The translations under genes and the position numbers were made by a program. A model generated the notes under the pieces. That model was given only the letters and a program-made list of their open reading frames with translations, was not told the DNA's origin and did no database searches. A stretch of 64,000 nt of DNA from Octopus vulgaris. Lineage: Eukaryota. Position 1 is the first letter of the stretch, and the number at the start of each line of letters is the position of its first letter. The stretch is from assembly GCA_951406725.2 (NCBI GenBank), contig OX597817.1, positions 1,550,001 through 1,614,000 on the forward strand. Direction: 5' to 3'. Positions 16,799 through 56,867 of this stretch are shown here, one piece after another.

Positions 16799-16874
<76 letters not shown>

Positions 16875-16877
16875 ATA

Positions 16878-17086
16878 GTTAATACAAACAAGAAAACACA
16901 AAGAGAAAACACAACAACGCGAGGACGTGGAAGAAATATAGTATTATTGGACGCTCAGGAAGGAAGGAAAGAAGGAGGGTTTAACGTTTCGAGCGGAGCC
17001 CTTCGTCGGAAACATAGGAGAAGGAAAGATCCCGAGAAGGGAAGACAGAGGAAAAGAAATCGCCAACGGTACACACGAGGTCACAT
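16878..17086 (-). mobile_element. About 205-bp Penelope-type terminal repeat / retrozyme-like element, copy A
   Basis: Homologous to 23875-24081, 51326-51494 and 51556-51757; abuts (TA)n; hammerhead-like motif at 16979-17013. Confidence 0.75.
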
Positions 17087-17964
17087 ACATTGCTTCTTAA
17101 GCCTCGTGTAATTATTTATTGCGTCATCTCTTTAATCGAAGCAAATCATGCGTCACGTGTTTATTTCGTTGTCTCTTACAAAGGAAGCATTTAAAGAAAA
17201 CGTACAGATTGTCTCAACAACAATCTTTGAACTTATTTGTTCTTCTACCCAACGAACTTATTAACATATTCGCTAGACAATCTGCCGAGAGTACTCTTAG
17301 GAAATAGGAACCAAATCTTTATAAAATAACCTCATACTTTCTTCAGCAAGAGAACAACATCTAGAGTACGTTGGATCTCATAGCACTCCATGGAATATGG
17401 TTGAAAAGAAAGTACAATATGGTCAAAATAGACCATTCTACTTAATGTGTATCTACTCCAGGCGGAGATCTGTTAGAATCGCCATCGCTCCCGGCTAAAA
17501 TGCTTAGCGACTTTTCTTCTGGTTATACGTTCCAAGTTCAAATAACGCCGTACTGGACTTTACCTTTCTTCCTTTGTTTCGAGATCAAAGAACTAATCAA
17601 GCATTGGCGTCGATGAAATCGATTACCCCTCTCTACCAAAATTCCTTTTGCTCTATATTAGGAAAGACCTATTTCTCTGCTCTATCAGAGTTTGCTAGGG
17701 TGCTTTGATTTTGATCTATTTGCATCTCATTCAGCTTTGGTGCAGTCATAACCCAAGATATCCCCCGTGTGAGGTTATAGCTGTGCCCGTGCATAGACAT
17801 GCACTCCTGTTTTCCTTTTTTGAGGGCACTGGACCTCGGCCATGTGGTGGTGGTGGGGGGGGTACTTTAATCAATGAAATCGATCACAGTACCAATTCCA
17901 TTCGACGAAATACTAAGTTACCAGGACGTAAACAAAACATTGCAGCTTCTAAAGTGATGAGGCA

Positions 17965-22262: not shown

Positions 22263-23874
22263 GTATTGACAAATATTCATCGCATGTATGTATATGTTCG
22301 CTCTTATTCCCAATGACTCGAACTCTTCAAGGAGTTGGTTTCTAACAATGATACAAAGCTCCATCGTTGATATGTTAATAACGAAAGCAAATTCACATTT
22401 TAAACGCGAGAAAAGTCTTAAATATTTGCACAGTTCCGCTGACAGATTGATTATCTTCGTTGAGATTATGATGTAAGATGAAGCAGTGTGGGTGACAGGA
22501 AGATCAGAGATCTTTTTTAAGGGTCGATTACCCAGCCATTACTCAAGAAGGAGTACCGTGCAGTACCAGCTAGATAGCTCAAACCTAAAAGGAACACATA
22601 GAATGGGTTACTCAATGCCCCGACTTTAATACAATAGGATACGTATTGAAACAGAAAGATAGAATGTTGTGAGCAAAATGATCCATAATTACATCAGTTG
22701 CAGAGCTGAAGGAATTGACAGTACTGTCGATAAATAGGAATCAGTCTGTTTTCAATAATTTAATCAAATCCATACATAATCGGGTGGAAATCGTTATATT
22801 ACCTAAAGGAGAACTTACAAAATATCAGTCAAACTTTTAATCATTCTGGATAATGTTTGATGTTATTAAAAGTAAAATTAGTATTTAGTTTTAATACTCT
22901 GGCCATAGAGTAATTGTAGGCAACTGTAGAGTCGCCATCCAACGGAAACAGCGTCAATAACACCACAAGCGTAGTAACACCATCAACAATATGGCTACCA
23001 ACAAGATATATTGTACGGCCTCAGGTATTAACTCCTACATCGCGAACGCATGAATACCACGAACGCGTTAATAATGGGGGTCATTTCTTGATTTCGTGAC
23101 TCTGCTAGAAATAGAAGCTAAATCTGCCTCGAATCATACTCTGCTGCTTTCCCGATAATATAACAGTTGGATAATGTAATCCTGAAGGAAAGACGAGAAG
23201 ATTATCGATGAAAAGCCTCGATTATAGGTCAGCTAGAGTGGGCTGACCCAGATCTAATAACAACATTAACACTACCCACAAACTCGCACCTAACACTATC
23301 ACCTTCTACACCAACTCTATTTCAAACACTACCGAAATAACAGCACTCATTGACACCACGAGGACTTTTCAATCTTTTAATGTCTTCCCATAATACATTC
23401 CAATGTTTTTGCTGCATTTTTTTCTCGTAAAATAACAATAGAAATAGGCAAAAGAACCAAGGATATATATAGACTTAAATTGCATTGTTATTACTGTTGT
23501 TAGTTCCACGTCTCATGGTACCAAAAGTGAATAACTTCAACAGGAATAGGAATACACCCAAAATCTTTCGCATTCGTGCGCACACCCACGTTGAATGACA
23601 TAAACGTGTAGAGCACACATTAGATATGACACAGAGAATCCACCAGACATCTGCACACAAAATCATATGCGTATAAGTGTGTGCGTTCACACACGCGCGC
23701 GCGCGCGAATTGTAGATTTTCAAATCTCATGACTCCAGATGGATACTCAACAAGAAAAAAACTCTACGCGTTGTGTTCTCTCACCTCGTTCGTAAAAATC
23801 AAGTATGTGAGGGTGTATGTATATATGCATGTATGTATATATGTATATATATGCATGTATGTATACATACATAC

Positions 23875-24079
23875 ATGTGACCTTGTGTGTACCGTTGGCG
23901 ATTTTTTTTTCCTCTGTCTTCCCTTCTCGGGATCTTTCCTTCTCCTATGTTTCCGACGAAGAGCTCCGCTCGAAACGTTAAACCCTCCGTCTTCCCTTCT
24001 TTCCTGAGCGTCCAATAAAACTATACTTGTTCCACGTCCTCGCGTTGTTGTGTTTTTTTGTGTTTTCTTGTTTGGATTA

Positions 24080-24081
<2 letters not shown>
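23875..24081 (+). mobile_element. About 205-bp Penelope-type terminal repeat / retrozyme-like element, copy B
   Basis: Same family as copy A; AATAAA downstream of the motif; T-rich 3' end running into (TA)n. Confidence 0.75.
23949..23983 (+). ncRNA. Minimal type I hammerhead ribozyme-like motif (U4C, extra A after core, palindromic stem III)
   Basis: GTTT-CCGACGA-A-GAGC-tcc-GCTC-GAAA-CG-TT-AAAC; stem I GTTT/AAAC, stem II GAGC/GCTC. Confidence 0.65.
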
Positions 24082-24124
<43 letters not shown>

Positions 24125-24126
<2 letters not shown>

Positions 24127-25318
24127 ACTTACGGCATAGTAGCCAGTGGATGTTTTGGGCTACTTTGTCGTGTCATCGCTTGTACTCATTCTGCGCAAGA
24201 CCTTCACAAGCACTGACAATGTGAATCATGCTTTCGACCCTCTTCCCACACATTCTGCAGAGGTCCGATGCACCTGTGTGGTATATATTCTTTTTCACTG
24301 AGTTGGTATTCAATGCCTTGTCCTGGGCCTCGATGATTAGGCTTTCAGTATTCTTTTCTAGGTCAACCTTGTTAAGCCACCTCCATGATGCTTCCTGCTC
24401 TTTTAATTTGTTGGTTTCATGGTGGAACTGAGCATGTAATTCCATGCGGAGTTGGGTTTCTTCTGTCTCCGTTGGCTGTTCTTGATCGGAATTCCGAAGC
24501 ACTCTCAAGTCCATTTTTGTTATATCCTTCTGCACTAGCAGCGTACTGTAGCAGGTCTTCTTTGCAGTTTACCAAATATTCTACCATGTTTCTTCTTTTA
24601 CTGTTAATGCACTCCCGTACGCTAATCAGCCCTTTGTCCACAGTTACCCTTCTTCATGTAGAGCCTGTGTACATACGCCACAGGGTGGCTGGACCATACA
24701 TTGTCATTGTCTTTTGGGTAGTGCGATTGAATTGGTTAATGTCTGCTTGTGTCCATTTCAGGATGGTTGCACTATAGTGGAATACAGCAACAGCCCATAT
24801 ATTGATAGCAGTCAGAAGGTTCCTTGAGTTGAGTTTTGATTTCAAAAGACGTTTAAGGCGCTTGAAATGTGAAGTGATGTCCATGTCTTTCATTTCTGTA
24901 TGCAAGATATTGTCCAGCTCCAGGATCCCAAGGTACGTGTACCCAACATCATCCGGGTCTTCCATTCTCTCTCTGTTTGGTAATTCTATGACCCTACAAA
25001 ATACTCTTTTCCCGCTGCTTCAAAGTAAGAACAGCGCACTTCGAGATACCAAATTCTATCCCTATATCCTTGCTGCACATTTGCATAGTATCAACCAGCC
25101 TCTCCAGGATTTCAGGCTCTGTTTTTGCGAACAGTTTTAAGTTAGCCATGAAGAGAAAGTGGTTGAGACGAGGTCCATTCTTCTCAGCTCATATTGCGCG
25201 TTGACTGCGTAGGACCACAGAAAGTGGCACCAAGGCTATAACAAATAACAGAGACTCCTTGAAAGATACCTCTCTTGATTGTTACCTCGGCTAAGTGCTG
25301 CTTGTTATGGGAAAGACT
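24125..25318 (-). mobile_element. R4/Dong-clade non-LTR retrotransposon fragment (RT to C-terminal CCHC), degraded
   Basis: IKRGIFQG, GYTYLGILELDNI, LLKSKLNSRNLLTAINIWAV, CRMCGKRVESMIHIVSACEGLAQNEYKR. Confidence 0.85.
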
Positions 25319-25400: not shown

Positions 25401-26463
25401 TAAAAATTTGATTCGGCTCCGTGCGGCTTACAAAAGTCTATATTGTTCAGGCTTATGTAACCGAATGAAGAGATACAGGAAGTTATCTGAGCCTGAACGA
25501 GTTAGGTTTCTGTAAGATGCCTGCGAAACATTATGTTGCATGGGGCCGGCTCAAACTGTTTTAAATAATAATATATGTAACTACTACTAATGTGTTAAGT
25601 GCCTTTTCCTTTCATCTGTCCACTCACTTGTGTATGTGTGTGCGCGTGTGCGTAATTTACCATTATTCATCACAAGGCATTGGTCAGCATGGGGCTATAG
25701 AAGAAATTCTTGTGTGCGATGAGGTGTTCGTTAGTTTTTCCGCTATTCTTCGATCTCTAATGAGGGGTTCTACCGAAAGGTCGTATGAGAGCTTGCGTTC
25801 TGCTGGCACAGTTCTAAGAGTTATTGAGGTAGACAAGTCATAACAAAATAACAACTGGACGTGGAGGTGGAGTGTTTTCTCGAAACATGTTTGGCAAATA
25901 TTCTTGCTCATCAGTTTCCAAACAAGATTCAGTTTCTTCTCCAAGCAGAAAATATGCATCTACACATTTCGCAAAAAAAGACAAAAAAAAAACAAATCCT
26001 ATCCATACAGATTCGATAAACAACAATGGAACATTTCTTTTTGTTTAAAGTTTCCCTTTTATATTTATTTGGGAAGGTAGAAAATACATACCAGTAATAT
26101 ACTGCAGTGCATAAAATTTTTGATACTTCTTCACTTTACTATTTAGAAAATTAGGGATTTTCACAGCATGCATTGATCACAATGAAATCAAATAAGAAAC
26201 TAGAATCACGTAGTTCATGCAAAAGTATGGAACACTATATACGCCACAAACTTGCATGATAACTTGACAGTACATACAAGCACGTTTGTGTTTGCGCAGA
26301 AGTGTATGTTTATGTTTGTATGTTCGACAGTTTTAACATTTACAGAGTAGTTCATACATACGATAATATAACAGAAGAAAAGATATAACACACACATACA
26401 CACGCACGCACGCACGCACGCACACATATATACAATTGTACAGGTATATATCTCTCTATCTAT

Positions 26464-26507
<44 letters not shown>

Positions 26508-26703
26508 TACATATATATATATGTATAGAGTCATACTTATGTATGTAAACATATTTACGTAACATGACTTCGATAAACTTTTTCATGTTTTCATGTATAG
26601 ATGTGATGTATGTATGTGTGCACGCGTGCGTGTGTGTATGCGTGTGCACGCGTGTGTAGGGGAGGAAAATTAACATGCACCAGTCCGTTGAAGCCATAAA
26701 TGG

Positions 26704-26740
<37 letters not shown>

Positions 26741-26879
26741 ACATATATATATATATATATGTATGTATATGTGTGTGAGTGTGTAAATATGCATATATAT
26801 TTATATATGCATGTATATATACATGTAGATGTAGGTACATACATATATGTTTGTATGTATGCATATATTTTATTTATTA

Positions 26880-26996
<117 letters not shown>

Positions 26997-27454
26997 TAAA
27001 TATTTGAATATAATATAGATTTATGAAAATATATACGCTGCTGATATGTGTCCATGTGTACGTGTGCGAAATTTCCGCTGTCGTAGATTTTCCATGGAAC
27101 TGGTCCCTTTATTTTTATGGTTATCTTCAAAAAGGCGACTGTATCGCTGAACATTATGTGATGTGTGCAACGACGTAGCCTCCTCGTTTTATCTGCTACT
27201 TGAATGCTTCGCTGTATTAAATGCTTAGCGTTCGTAACGTCTTAACTACCTTTTGTTATCGGCAGCTTCGCTGTTCGCCTCTGCGTCCGCCGTTGTTTGT
27301 GCTTCGGAATTGCGTGAGAAGATGTTTTGACATTTTGTTTTCTATTTTTGCTATATAGATTTCAATTCTAGCAGAAAAAGCTTATACACACACATGCAAA
27401 CAAACATGTATACATACATACATGCATACATACATGCATGCATGCATACATACA

Positions 27455-38100: not shown

Positions 38101-38724
38101 CCATACATACATGTATACATACATACATAGATACTTACATACATACATGCATACATTTCTCCTTATCGATATACATCGGTCCGGGCTTAGAAGCTTGGAT
38201 TCATTTCCTTGTTGATATCACAAATGATGAAAGACTATTGAAGAAAATGGAAAATCATTTCGCCCTCAACAATCTATAATCTTTGGATTGTTTCTGATTA
38301 GAGACGTTATATTACAATAAACTTCTTTTTTTTTCGCCGGCATTGTAGTAGCTCTTCTTAATCTTAGATGGAATCTTTAGTCTACACGTGGCGGTACACA
38401 CACCACCTGTCTCCAGACTCAATCAGTGTCCGAACATTTGCTGACATGTGGAGTAAAGTCAAACATCGTTTGACGTTTGAAGGATGGCTCCGGCTGTCAG
38501 TCGACTCTCATATAATGGTCGCCCTCCCAACTCCGTTTGCCGAGGAAGGACAGGTAAGAAAGGTGTTGTGTGATTGGCAAGATTGAGAGGATTGGTGACA
38601 GGACATTTATTCTCTAGCCAAGCTCTCCTCAACATTTTCAAGTATCACTTGAAAAAGGTCGCAGCTGAGAAGGAAGTGCTATCTTCTACTTAACTTTTTT
38701 TTGAAGGCGTGTGAATGTCTAAAG

Positions 38725-50024: not shown

Positions 50025-51280
50025 AGCAGCAGCAGCAGCAGCAACAACAACAACAACGACGACGACGACGACGATGACAATAACAACAAACAACGGCATA
50101 GACTTGTGCTCTCGAAGTTCTTTTATCTTATTTCAGCAATTGACCGATTGATTGCATAAAAGACTTGCTCCCTCCTCCAGTCACAGACATACCAAAACAA
50201 GTGGGTGTTGCAGCGGAGTGGTGCTTTGTGGTGCTTCTTAGGGCGGTGGTGGTGGTGGTGTTGGTCGATGTTGTGGTGGAGCCTCTGCTGGTTGTTGTAG
50301 CAGTAGAGGCAGTGGTGGTGTTGAGGTTTGGCTATGCTGTGAATGCTATAGCACTGGTGGTGGTGGTGGTGGCGACGGCAGTATTGATGGCTGTGGAGGC
50401 AGTGGTGTGGTGGTGTCGTCGGTGTTGTTGCGGGAGCGTCAGTAGTTGCCATGGTTTCAGTGATGGTGGAAGTGAGGGTGAGGACGGAGTCGGGGTTGCT
50501 ATCGTCGGTGCTGACACTGGTATGGCGGCGGTAGTGTTGATAATTGTCATCGTTATAGTATTGTGGAGGCATGCTGGTGGTGGTGGTGTTGGAGCGTTGT
50601 TGATAAAAAAAAGGGGGCCGTATATACTCGATGTGGATGAAAAGGGGCTGACTGTCAGTATTAGTAAGCATAATTACAGCTCCAAGTCAGAGAGAGGGAG
50701 TGGTGATGTTAGTGTTAGCGGTAGAAATGATAGTACTGTTGGTGATAGTGGTGATATTAGTAATAGTGGCGGCGGCGGTTGTGGTGGTGGTGGTGGTGGT
50801 GGTGGTGGTGGTGGTGGTGGTGGTGGTGGTGGTGCATATGGCTATGTCGGTGTGGAGATTGTTGATGGTGACGGTGGGGTTGATGTTGGTGTTGGAGATA
50901 ATTGTGATTAGACTGGTGGTACTAGTAGTGGTTGTTCAGGGGTGTTGTGGTAGCAGTGATGCCGTTGACGTTGGTCGTATTAGTGGTGGTGGTCGTCATT
51001 GAGAGGATGTTATTGTAGTTGATGATGGTGCTATGTAGGTGGTCGTTGAGGGTCTGTTCTAGTTGTTGTTGACGATGGTATTGTATTAGTGGTGATGTTG
51101 GCGATAATAATGATGTTATTGGTGTTGGTGGCATTTATAGTGATGATGGTGTTGTCGTTGGTGTTCAAGTTTATGATTGTAATAATGTTATTGTTGGTAA
51201 TCTTGGAAGTAATGCTGTTCATAGTGGTATTAGGTGTTGTGACAGCGCTAGTAGTCGTGGAGATAGGTTTGATGATGTGT
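50025..51280. repeat. Degenerate GGT/GTT/GAT trinucleotide low-complexity region
   Basis: Three-periodic G/T-rich sequence with a pure (GGT)n core near 50780-50833. Confidence 0.8.
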
Positions 51281-51325
51281 GTGTGTATGTTTATATATAT
51301 ATATATATATATAAATATATATATA

Positions 51326-51757
51326 GTTAATCCAAACAAGAAAGCACAAAAAAACACAACAACGCGAGGACGTGGAACAAATATAGTATTATTGGACGCT
51401 CAGGAAAGAAGGAAAGAAGGAGGGTTTAACGTTTCGACCGGAGCTCTTCGTCGGAAACATAGGAGAAGGAAAGATCCAGAGAAGGGAAGACAGATGTGAA
51501 TATATATGTATGTCTATATGTGTACATATATTTATATATATGTATATATTTGTACCGCGTGTGTACCGTTGGCGATTTTTTTTCCTCTGTCTTCCCTTCT
51601 CTGGATCTTTCCTTTTCCTATGTTTCAGACGAAGAGCTCCGCTCGAAACGTAAAACCCTCCTTCTTCCCTTCCTTCCTGGGCGTCCAATAATACTATATT
51701 TGTTCCACCTCCTCGTGTTGTTGTGATTTCTCTTTGTGTTTTCGTGTTTGGATTAAC
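51326..51757. mobile_element. Head-to-head inverted pair (copies C and D) of the same element
   Basis: 51326-51494 is the reverse complement of about 51586-51757; (TA)n on both outer sides. Confidence 0.8.
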
Positions 51758-51758
51758 T

Positions 51759-51818
<60 letters not shown>

Positions 51819-52178: not shown

Positions 52179-52257
<79 letters not shown>

Positions 52258-52440
52258 CCATACACAACACCACCAGACCACATCAAAATATTACACATCT
52301 CCAAAAGTCTGCACAACACACTCAAAGGCATTTTCCCCAGTGCGGTTGGTAAATGCCAAAAATATCTCACAAAGAAACTGTACTGGGATCTCCTCGAGGA
52401 CAAACCAGCGGAGGAGAAAGCAAAAACTTTCGAGCAGTAA
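52258..52440 (+). pseudogene. Probable C-terminal fragment of LINE ORF1
   Basis: Stop-free frame PYTTPPDHIKIL...KAKTFEQ* ending 44 nt before the ORF2 ATG and truncated at the microsatellite. Confidence 0.6.
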
Positions 52441-52484
52441 GTAACCCTCTGTTCCTTTCACTTGTATTCTAATTCATTAGGACT

Positions 52485-53960
52485 ATGATCAAGATTGGTT
52501 GTGTAAATGCGCGTGGCTTGGGGTCCCCTTGGAAACAAGGGTACCTCTTAAATGACATAAAGTCACATAAGTTAGAAATCATAGCCATAAGTGAGACCAG
52601 ACTCCACAATCCGCGGGCCCTAAAGACCATGTTTGGCGGACAGTTCAACATTTATTTTTCCCCCTGTCTCCCGAGAATGGGCGGTAGTGGCACCGCGGTA
52701 CTTTTTCGTAAGAGTCTGGATCTCAAAGTAAGGACAATATTCGTAGACCCGGGGGGTAGACTGGTCGTCCTGGATGTCGACGGCAGCAATGGGTGCACTT
52801 TTCGACTCGTATCAGTCTACGCACCGCCCTTAACAGGTCGGGCGGATTTCTTTCAACGTCTAGAAGTATTCTTGGGAACGTCTCGTCCTTTACTCTTAGT
52901 GGGGGATTGGAATGCTACCTTGGACACGCATGTAGACTACGTGGGTAGAGATAGGAATAGACGGAGATGCAAATGCCTCAGAGACCTGCTCAGACGCTTT
53001 CAACTGTCTGACAGGTTCCGACTAGACCACCCGAATGCGCCAACGTGGACATGGAGCAACCGCATCGGGTCGTCGAGATCGTATCTAGATAGGATACTGT
53101 GTAGGACAGTAGACAAAGATAGCATAGGATGTCCACAATTCCACATAGTCAGCTACACGGATCACAAACTTGTGACATGTACGCTAGACTTAGGTAAGAC
53201 ACTTAGGTAGGGTCCCGGATACTGGAAACTAAACGCGTCTTTCCCATCGAGACAGGTTTTCAGAGACCGGATTAGCACACTAGTAAAGAGGGCTTTGACG
53301 GGAGCCATCATCAACAACAAATGGTGGTTTGCCCTCAAGAGAGCAGTAAAAGCAGAAGCGATTAGGTACAGCAAAGCACTAGCCATAGACAGAAATAGAA
53401 TTGAGAGTGAGCTGGTTAAGAAGCTAGAAGAGGCAATTAGAAGCGGCATCGCATCTGACGTTTTGGCGGCGAGGTTGGCCCTCGACCAACACTTCAACGC
53501 CAAACACGAAGGATGTGCTGTCAGAGCTAGGATGCGTGCTCTAAGGAACGAAGGTGTTGGAGCCGCGAGAGAGGCCCGGGTGGCAGAGGCGCAACAGGGC
53601 AACAAAGCCACCATTCGGTCCCTGGTAGATGAACAGGGGCGCGAATTGATCGAGCCAAGTAAAATGTGTGAGGCCTTTCAGCAGCATTTTGCCCGACTGT
53701 TCGGGACGAGTGGAGGGCAAGAACGTAGGGTGGACTTCAGTGCCTACCTACATAGCCTACCACGACTCTCGACAAGAAAGGCAGGGTGCTGCGAAGGTGC
53801 CATCACGGCGGAGGAAGTGCAGGAAGCGATGGCAGAATGCTCGAGGGACAAATCACCAGGTTTGGATGGTCTACCCTACGAGCTTTACAATTGTATGCCA
53901 GACTTGTTTGGAGATCTCTTGGCGGCGGTGTACTGCAACTGGCAGCAAAACGGGAGCATT
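52485..53960 (+). pseudogene. LINE ORF2 N-terminal half (APE endonuclease, linker, start of RT region); in-frame TAG at 53208-53210
   Basis: Motifs NARGL, ISET, VGDWN, YLDRIL, TDHKLV; the same frame continues past the stop (GPGYWKLN) into the 53295 ORF with KSPGLDGLPYELY. Confidence 0.93.
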
Positions 53961-54329
53961 TGAGATCCAGACTCTTACGAAAAAGTACCGCGGTGCCACT
54001 ACCGCCCATTCTCGGGAGACAGGGGGAAAAATAAATGTTGAACTGTCCGCCAAACATGGTCTTTAAGGCCCGCGGATTGTGGAGTCTGGTCTCACTTATG
54101 GCTATGATTTCTAACTTATGTGACTTTATGTCATTTAAGAGGTCCCCTTGTTTCCAAGGGGACCCCAAGCCACGCGCATTTACACAACCAATCTTGATCA
54201 TAGTCCTAATGAATTAGAATACAAGTGAAAGGAACAGAGGGTTACTTACTGCTCGAAAGTTTTTGCTTTCTCCTCTGCTGGTTTGTCCTCGAGGAGATCC
54301 CAGTACAGTTTCTTTGTGAGATATTTTTG
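53959..54329 (-). repeat. Inverted duplicate of 52357-52727 inside the LINE
   Basis: 371-bp reverse-complement match with 3 substitutions found by eye. Confidence 0.97.
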
Positions 54330-54342
54330 AGCCGATATTTTT

Positions 54343-56301
54343 GGTTTTGTGAGCCGAGGAGCCGTAACACTGCTGAAGAAAGATCTAAACAAGGGAAATG
54401 TAATAGATAACTTTAGGCCTATCACTCTGCTTAATGCAGACTTGAAAATTTTGGCCAAGGTGCTAGCCAAGAGGTTGGCGCTTGTCATCGAGAAACTGGT
54501 CGACAAGGCGCAAACATGCGCCGTGCCGGGCCGGAGCATCCATGACAACCTCCACCTGATGCGCTACATCATAGACAGGGTAGTTAACGAACATGGCATG
54601 GGTGGGGCGCTGATCAATTTGGATCAATCGAAAGCTTTCGATAGGGTAGACCATCGATACTTGGAGACGGTCCTCAGAGCGGTAGGCTTCGGTCCCGTCT
54701 TCCGCGGCTGGATAGCCGCTTTGTACAGAGGCATCCGTTCGGTAATTCGCGTGAATGGACATCTATCGAGACCCTTCGACATCGCACGTTCGGTCCGTCA
54801 GGGATGCCCCCTCTCGTCGCTTCTATACGTATTGACTCTCGAGCCATTATTGCGGAAGCTGGCAACTTTGAGGGGCATCCCGCGAGAACTGGGATGCGGG
54901 ACGAGCGTGTCTGCATACGCGGACGACGTCACCGTCATAGTGTCTAGCCACGAGCACATCGAGCAGGTCGGCGAGACACTGAAAAACTACGAAGCGGTGA
55001 CAGGAGCGAAAATCAACCGGGAAAAGTCAGTGGGCTTGCGACTAGGCACCTGGAGAAGCAAGCCCATGCCGTCCACCAGCGCCTCCGTCGTGGGACGCTG
55101 GACCGACGGCCCGGTTGAGTTGCTCGGGGTCTGGTTTGGTCCGGACCTCCAAGTGGAGAAGAACTGGAACGAGATAACGAGTAGGGTGGTCACTCTCGCC
55201 CGGCAATGGGCCGAGAGGAAACTGTCCCTAAAAGGTCGGGCGGAGGTGGCGAACACGTACATCGCGTCCGTCATCTACTACCGCCTGACCGTCGTACCAT
55301 GTCCCAACCCTACCATCACCAAACTACAACGCATTCTCTTTCGCTTCTTGTGGAAAGGATGCGTCCCGATGGTCAGGCGATCCATTTGCTGTCAACACCC
55401 GTTAAAAGGAGGGCTGGGCATGCCGTGGTTGATGATGCGCAGACACGCGCTGAGACTGCGACATCTCTGGCTCTATGTAGACGACGGTGAACAGATGTGG
55501 TTGCCGTTTGTGAGGCACGCTTTCCCGCAGCTCGTCTCCATGACCGAACTGCAGTCGTGGATCAAAAAGAGGCCGAAGAAGGGCGAATGGCACCGCGAGT
55601 GTCGCGTTGCTCTCAAGCAACTCTGCCGTCCCGGGTCGACCTTGAGTGACTTCATCACAACCAAAGCATTCTATAGGGGATTAGTGGAGGGGAGGTACGA
55701 CGACGAGCTCGGGGCGAACCTGGACGTCGACGAGGAGTACCTGACCCGCCTGTTCAGGACGACTTTCGGGCCAGGGCCCATGGACAACTTCCAGAGATCC
55801 CTGGTCTGGCAGTGCTACCGAGAAGCGCTACCCGTTCGGGATAAGCTCTACAGACACGGCTCGAGAAACACGGGGCCGACCTGCCCGAGATGCGGTCAGA
55901 GCGACGAAACCGTTCTGCACGCACTCGTTCAGTGTCCAACAATTTCCGACCTGTGGGCTTATGTCGAACAACTGCTGTCACGTGTGGGACGAGTCGGTTT
56001 ATCAGCTGAGTCTATCGTCAATATTGTCACGCCTCCTTCCTTCAAACGGGAAGGAAGAGCTATTTTCATCATCCTTGTGGCTATGGCGAAAGAATGTATC
56101 TGGTGGACGCGTCTGAAAGGATTGGAGACAAACACTTTCCTCTCTGGTCAATCTCTCATCAACTTCTTCAAGTACCACTTGAAAAGGAAAGTGAGAGTAG
56201 AGAGGCAAGTTTTGTCTAGCGAATGTTTTAAAAAAAGATGGGTGAATGTAGCAAGAATGGCACGTATGAATGACGAAGCCACCTTGAGCATAATCCTATG
56301 A
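54343..56301 (+). pseudogene. LINE ORF2 C-terminal half (reverse transcriptase and C-terminal zinc knuckle)
   Basis: FRPITLLNADLKILAKVL, LDQSKAFDRV, QGCPLS, YADD, CPRCGQSDETVLHALVQC; open for 650 aa. Confidence 0.95.
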
Positions 56302-56867
56302 ACCCAGAAATTGAAAACAGAGGGTTACCCACTTGCAAACAAATGTGGTAACATATAACAATATTGACCAAGGTTACCGTGGTCTTTTTCGTAGGCTTTT
56401 CTTCCCACGGATAAACCTTACTTGCTTTCCCCTTTACACCATATATCATAACACTGTGATACACGATACCTATTGATCGTTCTTTTTTTCCTCTCCCTTT
56501 TTTTTCCCCCTTTTTTCTTCTTTTTTCATTTCTCTTTCCTTTTGTTCCTTTTCCTTTCCTTTTTTTTTCTTTTTATTCTTTTTATTTTATTCAATTTTTT
56601 TTGTTTTTGTTCTTTTCTTCCCTTTTACGATCCCTCTTGATCGAAAACCTACGCCACCCCTTTTTTTTTTCTTTTGTTTTTTGTTCTCTTCATCCCCCAA
56701 AAGAAAAGCTCTACCTTGTAACTTGTCCCATCTGTGTGCAGCCCTGTGTGGCCAATAAAGAAACTTATCTATCTATCTTTCTATCTATATGTTTGTCTGT
56801 CTGTCTATCTGCTGTCTGTCTGTCTGTTTGTCTGTCTATCTGTCTGTGTATTTATGTATGTATATAG

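Follow-up and report, generated by a model that had tools for sequence, protein, structure and literature searches.

Several described systems produce inserts copied from nearby sequence. In Drosophila, synthesis-dependent microhomology-mediated end joining (SD-MMEJ) generates insertions that piece together overlapping copies of the sequence on either side of a break (PMC2943611), and patchwork insertions elsewhere have been explained as repeated rounds of end joining by polymerase theta (TMEJ; PMC13269935). In the human germline, complex events with multiple template switches accounted for 33 of 103 calls in one person and for 26 of 99 in another (PMC8421209), and templated insertions of 376 and 815 bp have been recorded at junctions (PMC5120786). 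Long-read sequencing of 1,019 human genomes yielded 277 events of inverted duplication, the commonest inversion class outside mobile-element events; their median length is 284 bp, and most show 1-15 bp of microhomology (PMC12350158). Here, we describe a stretch of 64,000 nucleotides (nt) from Octopus vulgaris (assembly GCA_951406725.2, contig OX597817.1, positions 1,550,001 to 1,614,000 of the forward strand; hereafter the window), in which a long interspersed element (LINE) of the L1/Tx1 type carries an inverted copy of part of itself. The insert and its stuttered right-hand junction are probably the scar of one microhomology-mediated templated insertion, with the element's own upstream sequence likely serving as the template.

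An original prediction, made from the DNA letters, identified the insert as a 371-bp inverted duplication with three differences, and this description proved exact: positions 53959-54329 are the reverse complement of 52357-52727, with precisely three differences, at 52410/54276, 52542/54144 and 52620/54066. The two arms, each 371 nt long and lying 1231 nt apart, form the longest inverted pair in the window. A BLAST search of the element against the 64-kb window returned no source for the insert besides the same element. The pieces that make up the insert are as follows.

52357..52727, plus strand: donor arm, comprising the putative tail of open reading frame 1 (ORF1), a spacer and the first 81 codons of ORF2.
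53959..54329, minus strand: inverted copy of 52357-52727, with 3 differences.
54328..54335, plus strand: patch of 8 nt that repeats 54350-54357, in the resumed ORF2, exactly and overlaps its neighbours by 2 nt on each side.
54334..54344, minus strand: 11-nt second copy of the donor end, the reverse complement of 52356-52366.

Little of the host reading frame was lost. ORF2 runs as far as the residues QQNGSI, ending at 53960, and picks up again with GFVSRGAVTLL at 54343, with a single codon missing. The size of this deletion, which had been predicted to be small, was checked and confirmed by alignment to homologues. Among 120 homologous proteins, 77 aligned closely enough on both sides of the break, and 75 of these have exactly one residue between the two ORF2 pieces (a proline in 70 of the 75). 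Therefore, a continuous template existed when the insert formed. In nucleotides, the loss ranges from 3, with native base pairs of the sequence at both outer joins, to 7, with native ones at neither.

Every base of 53959-54344 can be traced either to the donor (52356-52727) or to the resumed ORF2 (54350-54357). The right junction reads as predicted, with short pieces of both partners in alternation, and its 15-nt stutter can be parsed in full: 8 nt from the resumed ORF2, followed by 11 nt of re-copied donor end. The order of patches is donor, partner, donor, partner. Both inner joins overlap by 2 nt (TG and GA), and the outer joins have 0-2 nt depending on which bases were lost, as 54343-54344 may be native or donor-derived and 53959-53960 native or shared with the insert. 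The 11-mer at 54334-54344 has a single other occurrence in the 64 kb, reversed, at 52356-52366, and the chance probability of this piece is about 6e-6 within 40 positions; for the 8-mer at 54328-54335, the chance is about 6e-4 within 30 positions. Further, both partners do share the 8-mer that had been noticed earlier, at 54313-54320 in the donor end and at 54346-54353 in the resumed ORF2. A shared run of at least 8 nt was found in 80 of 20000 random 20-mer pairs from the element, a figure to be read with window sizes that were picked post hoc. This 8-mer could have held the two templates together.

We suggest that synthesis halted, or the DNA broke, near 53960. One end would then have moved to the opposite strand 1.2 kb upstream, where 371 nt were copied. 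Rejoining may have succeeded in two tries, leaving the 8-nt patch of the right-hand partner and the 11-nt re-copy of the donor end, at a cost of 3-7 nt of ORF2. The order of these steps is presumptive, because the same product could be built from either end. The template was presumably in cis, and the agent would have been host repair or a fork polymerase, acting through polymerase theta (Pol theta)-type end joining or through fork stalling and template switching or break-induced replication that relies on microhomology (FoSTeS/MMBIR). The three arm differences would have arisen after the event. The small deletion, the derivation of the inserted bases from nearby sequence and the patchwork expected of repeated synthesis are all characteristic of templated insertions. 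The original prediction had invoked template switching, either during integration or during break repair. Switching with microhomology is supported by the make-up of the junction and by the classes already described, and self-templating is likely. The scar is most likely an ordinary one, of error-prone DNA copying at a break.

Several observations weigh against this account. The left junction has no certain microhomology: no bases match before 53959, and an interrupted ATT codon would raise this to 2 at most. Pairing between the break end and the donor start was equalled or bettered by 482 of 500 random upstream 31-mers. Simple hairpin priming at the left junction is thus unsupported, its pairing being no better than chance and its homology only 0-2 nt. 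The main template is 371 nt long and 1231 nt away. Templated insertions in the narrow sense (TINS, as called by SIQ) take their template from within 100 bp of the break (PMC13269935), so that only the 8-nt patch would qualify. Yeast fold-backs span 5-34 bp (PMC11724301), far less than the insert. Inverted insertions have been attributed to a sister-chromatid template in preference to a fold-back (PMC13269935), which counts against a fold-back form of the event. A search of the open-access literature for a paper on characteristic template distances found none. Because the main piece exceeds TINS and yeast fold-backs in both length and distance, we lean towards a replicative switch for it. A last adverse point, concerning synonymous differences between the arms, is taken up below with the possible donors.

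The host element occupies 52258-56764 on the plus strand, its boundaries placed by flanking TATC arrays. It is 4507 nt long, or about 4.12 kb without the insert, and is organised as follows.

52179..52257, plus strand: perfect (TCTA)n array of 19.8 units with 100% matches, abutting the 5′ end of the LINE.
52258..56764, plus strand: LINE copy, defined by its domains and array-set ends, likely 5′-truncated.
52258..52440, plus strand: 60-codon open frame without an ATG, a possible ORF1 tail, unconfirmed.
52485..53207, plus strand: apurinic-type endonuclease part of ORF2 (Pfam PF03372, E 3.9e-18).
53208..53210, plus strand: in-frame TAG in ORF2, independent of the insertion.
53211..53960, plus strand: ORF2 linker as far as the break, with 53959-53960 native or shared with the insert.
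54343..56301, plus strand: resumed ORF2, with reverse transcriptase (PF00078, E 9.6e-34) and C-terminal zinc-binding region (PF13966, E 7.8e-8).
56302..56764, plus strand: 3′ untranslated region (UTR) containing a pyrimidine tract; its AATAAA, at 56754-56759, is not followed by a poly(A) tail.
56766..56855, plus strand: degenerate TATC/TCTG array, abutting the 3′ end of the LINE.

The N-terminal apurinic-type endonuclease (PF03372), the L1-like reverse transcriptase (PF00078) and the C-terminal zinc-binding region (PF13966) mark the element as a non-LTR retrotransposon of L1/Tx1 type, an assignment made from domains and matches. Among solved structures, the best match of ORF2 is human L1 ORF2p (E 3e-33), and R2 matches more weakly (E 1e-15). 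The copy is young, because it is GC-rich relative to its surroundings (51% over 52258-56301 vs 37% outside the element) and free of frameshifts other than the insert. The resumed ORF2 is open across 652 codons. The in-frame stop at 53208-53210, which the original prediction did not mention, is a separate lesion, and the closest relative, P0001, reads through this position. The copy is also likely 5′-truncated, because only 227 nt separate the upstream (TCTA)n array from the ORF2 ATG and because its 4.12 kb falls about 1.3 kb short of the O. vulgaris average: Table 1 of PMC13282606 gives a mean of 5.4 kb for those recent L1-Tx1 insertions that are near-full-length. For the 60-codon frame at 52258-52440, a search for homologues found none, and an open frame of this size is expected by chance at about 0.16. 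The local RNA structure of 52258-52500 is not significant (z -1.45). Separately, a 13-nt perfect complement links 52441-52453, in the spacer after the putative ORF1 stop, with 56316-56328, in the 3′ UTR after the ORF2 stop. Equal lengths arose in 24 of 300 shuffles, so that the match may be due to chance, although its positions hint at a long-range RNA contact. Within ORF2, a second native inverted match (53853-53878 with 54642-54667; 26 nt, 85%, with a perfect 14-nt core) straddles the break site, and no role for it in the event can be demonstrated.

The best protein relatives are 72-74% identical, or 62-67% for the endonuclease. Relatives that carry a species name include proteins of the coleoid cephalopods Argonauta hians (64%) and Acanthosepion pharaonis, which by themselves would make a coleoid, probably octopod, source likely. 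A search of proteins clustered at 50% identity found none closer than about 70%, on short pieces. The search that supplied the 120 homologues covered proteins of up to 1141 residues, and the whole ORF2 has about 1145, so intact close relatives were possibly missed. The window copy differs from its homologues at 37 of 324 conserved columns; it represents a different subfamily, which makes a leave-one-out decay test uninformative. Two scans for stray copies in bacterial and archaeal genome contigs found none. One 63%-identical relative, P0005, is assigned by its label to a bacterial metagenome-assembled genome, where it likely represents animal host DNA. Within the 64-kb window, there is no close family copy besides a 73-nt, 81%-identical fragment at 38584-38655. 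This fragment lies in an old remnant of a related LINE at 38559-38687, which preserves the C-terminal end of ORF2 (52% amino-acid identity; 81% DNA identity over 73 nt). The AATAAA motif of the element stands 6 nt before the 3′ array. With TATC arrays at both ends, the LINE may be a member of a Tx1 family that targets TATC, comparable to Kibi and Koshi, but one insertion was seen, and such arrays are common in the window, where those of at least 5 units number five.

When the insert formed relative to the integration of the LINE is constrained by two estimates whose ranges overlap. Divergence of the arms amounts to 0.40% per arm (95% range 0.08-1.2%), and the age of the copy, from one stop in 3423 coding sites, corresponds to 0.7-0.8% divergence since insertion (95% range 0.02-4.6%). 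An insert as old as the copy would be expected to show 5-6 arm differences (0.1-34), and three are observed. Both formation at integration and later repair fit these figures. We regard it as unlikely, though not negligibly so, that the insert was made during integration. In the course of second-strand synthesis, the growing end would have switched to the element's RNA or to its own newly made strand, copied 371 nt in reverse and then gone back to the complementary DNA (cDNA). Such a course, to which we give the same low weight, would be a timing variant of templated insertion and would leave the same resulting sequence. In its favour, arm divergence is compatible with the age of the whole copy, and L1 integration has been described to involve template switches as well as inverted duplications of 52-220 bp formed by fold-back (PMC10191854; bioRxiv 2024.12.14.628481; bioRxiv 2024.08.27.596794). 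However, the duplications described in these reports copy target-site flanking DNA or go with 5′ inversion, whereas here the insert lies inside the element, whose 5′ part keeps its sense orientation. Nor are the age ranges narrow enough to favour this timing.

Twin priming is rejected on layout: 52258-53958 remains in sense orientation. The original prediction held that classical twin priming inverts the 5′ part without duplicating it. This was too strong, as 283 of 1703 5′-inverted L1 insertions carry an internal duplication, of median 22 bp (bioRxiv 2024.08.27.596794), yet the plus/minus/plus layout seen here is not twin priming. A short duplication at the inversion join, as twin priming would leave, is not what is found here, where 371 nt come from 1.2 kb away. 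In the same study, the 5′/3′ switching variants of twin priming all accompany 5′ inversion. The study left 81 of 3,598 insertions unclassified, and the layout seen in the window might be among its supplements.

Less probable than formation during integration is the capture of a fragment (DNA, cDNA or RNA) of another family copy, with the three differences then being copy-to-copy variation. In the element's frames, of which that of ORF1 (holding one of the sites) is unconfirmed, two of the three leave the encoded residue unchanged, which runs against self-templating and faintly suggests that the donor was another active copy. This synonymous excess is not significant, however, with a chance of 0.15-0.22. 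Near-identical donors would exist, given 421 recent L1-Tx1 insertions in 13 families in O. vulgaris (PMC13282606), but the donor stretch lies wholly in the retained part of this very element, 1.2 kb from the break, and the window contains no other close copy. The remaining, amino-acid-changing difference also speaks against capture. Across the 44 of 302 proteins that covered the site, the Asp encoded by the inverted arm occurs in none, and the Tyr of the donor arm occurs in two, one of them 66% identical. This is a faint hint that the Asp reflects later decay in a dead, non-coding arm. Adenosine-to-inosine editing of the RNA before reverse transcription was also considered as a source of the differences and rejected, since only one of the three could fit on the sense strand.

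An assembly or library artefact (a repeat misjoin, fold-back or amplification chimera) is very improbable: although the evidence is assembled sequence only, and the element is young, repetitive and surrounded by DNA rich in microsatellites, an overlap misjoin would need far more than the 0-2 nt that the joins share, the arms differ at three sites, resumption of ORF2 within one codon would require two coordinated errors, and the window has no N.

The most doubtful proposal concerns function. The original prediction suggested that the locus might be a source of double-stranded RNA that silences the family in trans, its transcript folding into a 371-bp stem; the locus would then act as a Mu killer-like allele. 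In its fullest form, this would be a cephalopod 'LINE killer', in which a read-through transcript with a stem over the ORF2 start is diced, or feeds PIWI-interacting RNAs (piRNAs), and damps the L1/Tx1 family. We consider both forms barely credible. If transcribed, the arms, lying 1231 nt apart, would pair strongly (-733.6 kcal/mol) over the start of ORF2. Maize Mu killer offers a precedent (PMC1563492), piRNAs are abundant in molluscs, and the inverted arm is antisense to the family mRNA. However, there is no sign of transcription, in that the copy appears to lack its 5′ end, with its 227 nt before the ORF2 ATG, and the ORF2 of this candidate silencing copy already carries a stop. Promoters of L1-type elements are located in the 5′ UTR. 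Nor was a host exon found near the LINE: 296 open frames outside the element gave no Pfam match above the cut-off, a scan that short exons between long introns would escape. These 296 were drawn from 474 open frames of at least 55 codons, after low-complexity and in-element frames had been dropped.

The published record on molluscan small RNAs also weighs against silencing. PMC12479628 reports neither a Dicer and Argonaute of the type dedicated to small interfering RNAs (siRNAs) nor an siRNA signature in molluscs, O. bimaculoides included, describes piRNAs that need no hairpin, and indicates that editing may melt such duplexes. Moreover, antisense RNA could be supplied by any oppositely oriented family copy. 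Word searches of open-access titles and abstract starts found no report of a LINE that silences or that contains an inverted duplication internally, which does not imply absence from print. Thus the trans-silencing part of the original prediction is unsupported, given that the searches revealed neither a host exon nor a 5′ end with a promoter and that molluscs are reported to lack a dedicated siRNA pathway. A silencing role for the locus is improbable, and what the insertion event left behind is a dead copy with no likely function.

Other features of the window lie apart from the element. A young family of short repeats, with copies 88-95% identical and flanked by (TA)n, is present at 51279-51800, 16823-17090 and 23818-24128, and two of its copies face each other as an inverted pair at 51279-51758. 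A 297-codon open frame on the minus strand (26215-27108), in an AT-rich stretch, has no Pfam match. At 1797-1985 on the plus strand, a CHD6-9 helical domain of Pfam is matched weakly, at 19.9 bits against a cut-off of 27, possibly by chance.

The insert is one clean case of a mutation class that is already known. It provides an example of a templated-insertion scar in an invertebrate germline, and at most one data point for iterative microhomology-mediated switching in cephalopods. Were plus/minus/plus inserts to prove enriched, genome-wide, in young L1/Tx1 copies relative to other DNA, they would point to an integration-time mechanism outside the L1 classes set out in bioRxiv 2024.08.27.596794. 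The locus would carry greater weight if it were transcribed and gave rise to small RNAs or hyper-editing; silencing, if true, would mean family-wide damping in a phylum reported to be without a dedicated siRNA pathway (PMC12479628).

Set beside the systems with which it might be compared, the locus resembles each in part. Maize Mu killer (PMC1563492) likewise has part of a transposon duplicated in inverted orientation, yet it is transcribed inside a host gene and yields small RNAs in the plant, whereas the octopus locus is known from its sequence alone. Kibi and Koshi, microsatellite-targeting members of the L1/Tx1 clade (PMC4494074), have the same ORF2 organisation of endonuclease, reverse transcriptase and C-terminal zinc-binding region. 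The window LINE, too, abuts a microsatellite at both ends, although its repeat is TATC instead of TC or TTC. With L1 twin priming (bioRxiv 2024.08.27.596794), it shares inverted LINE sequence inside a LINE and the possibility of duplication, but twin priming inverts the 5′-most part, whereas the octopus copy keeps that part in sense orientation and continues with the loss of one codon. Fold-back duplications at L1 sites (PMC10191854; bioRxiv 2024.12.14.628481) are similarly LINE-tied inverted duplications of tens to hundreds of bp with 2-bp microhomology. Those copy flanking DNA by way of a small hairpin, however, and the octopus insert is internal, with a 1.2-kb spacer.

The closest parallels are with templated insertion itself. 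TMEJ and SD-MMEJ insertions (PMC2943611, PMC13269935) share the small deletion, the nearby inverted copy, the two-sided patchwork and the 2-nt overlaps, although the main piece here (371 nt, from 1.2 kb away) is longer and comes from further off than in usual TINS. MMBIR/FoSTeS insertions and short inverted duplications of the human germline (PMC8421209, PMC12350158, PMC5120786) share its size, its microhomology at the joins and its multiple switches. The octopus case differs from these in occurring in an invertebrate, and in having both template and target within one retrotransposon copy.

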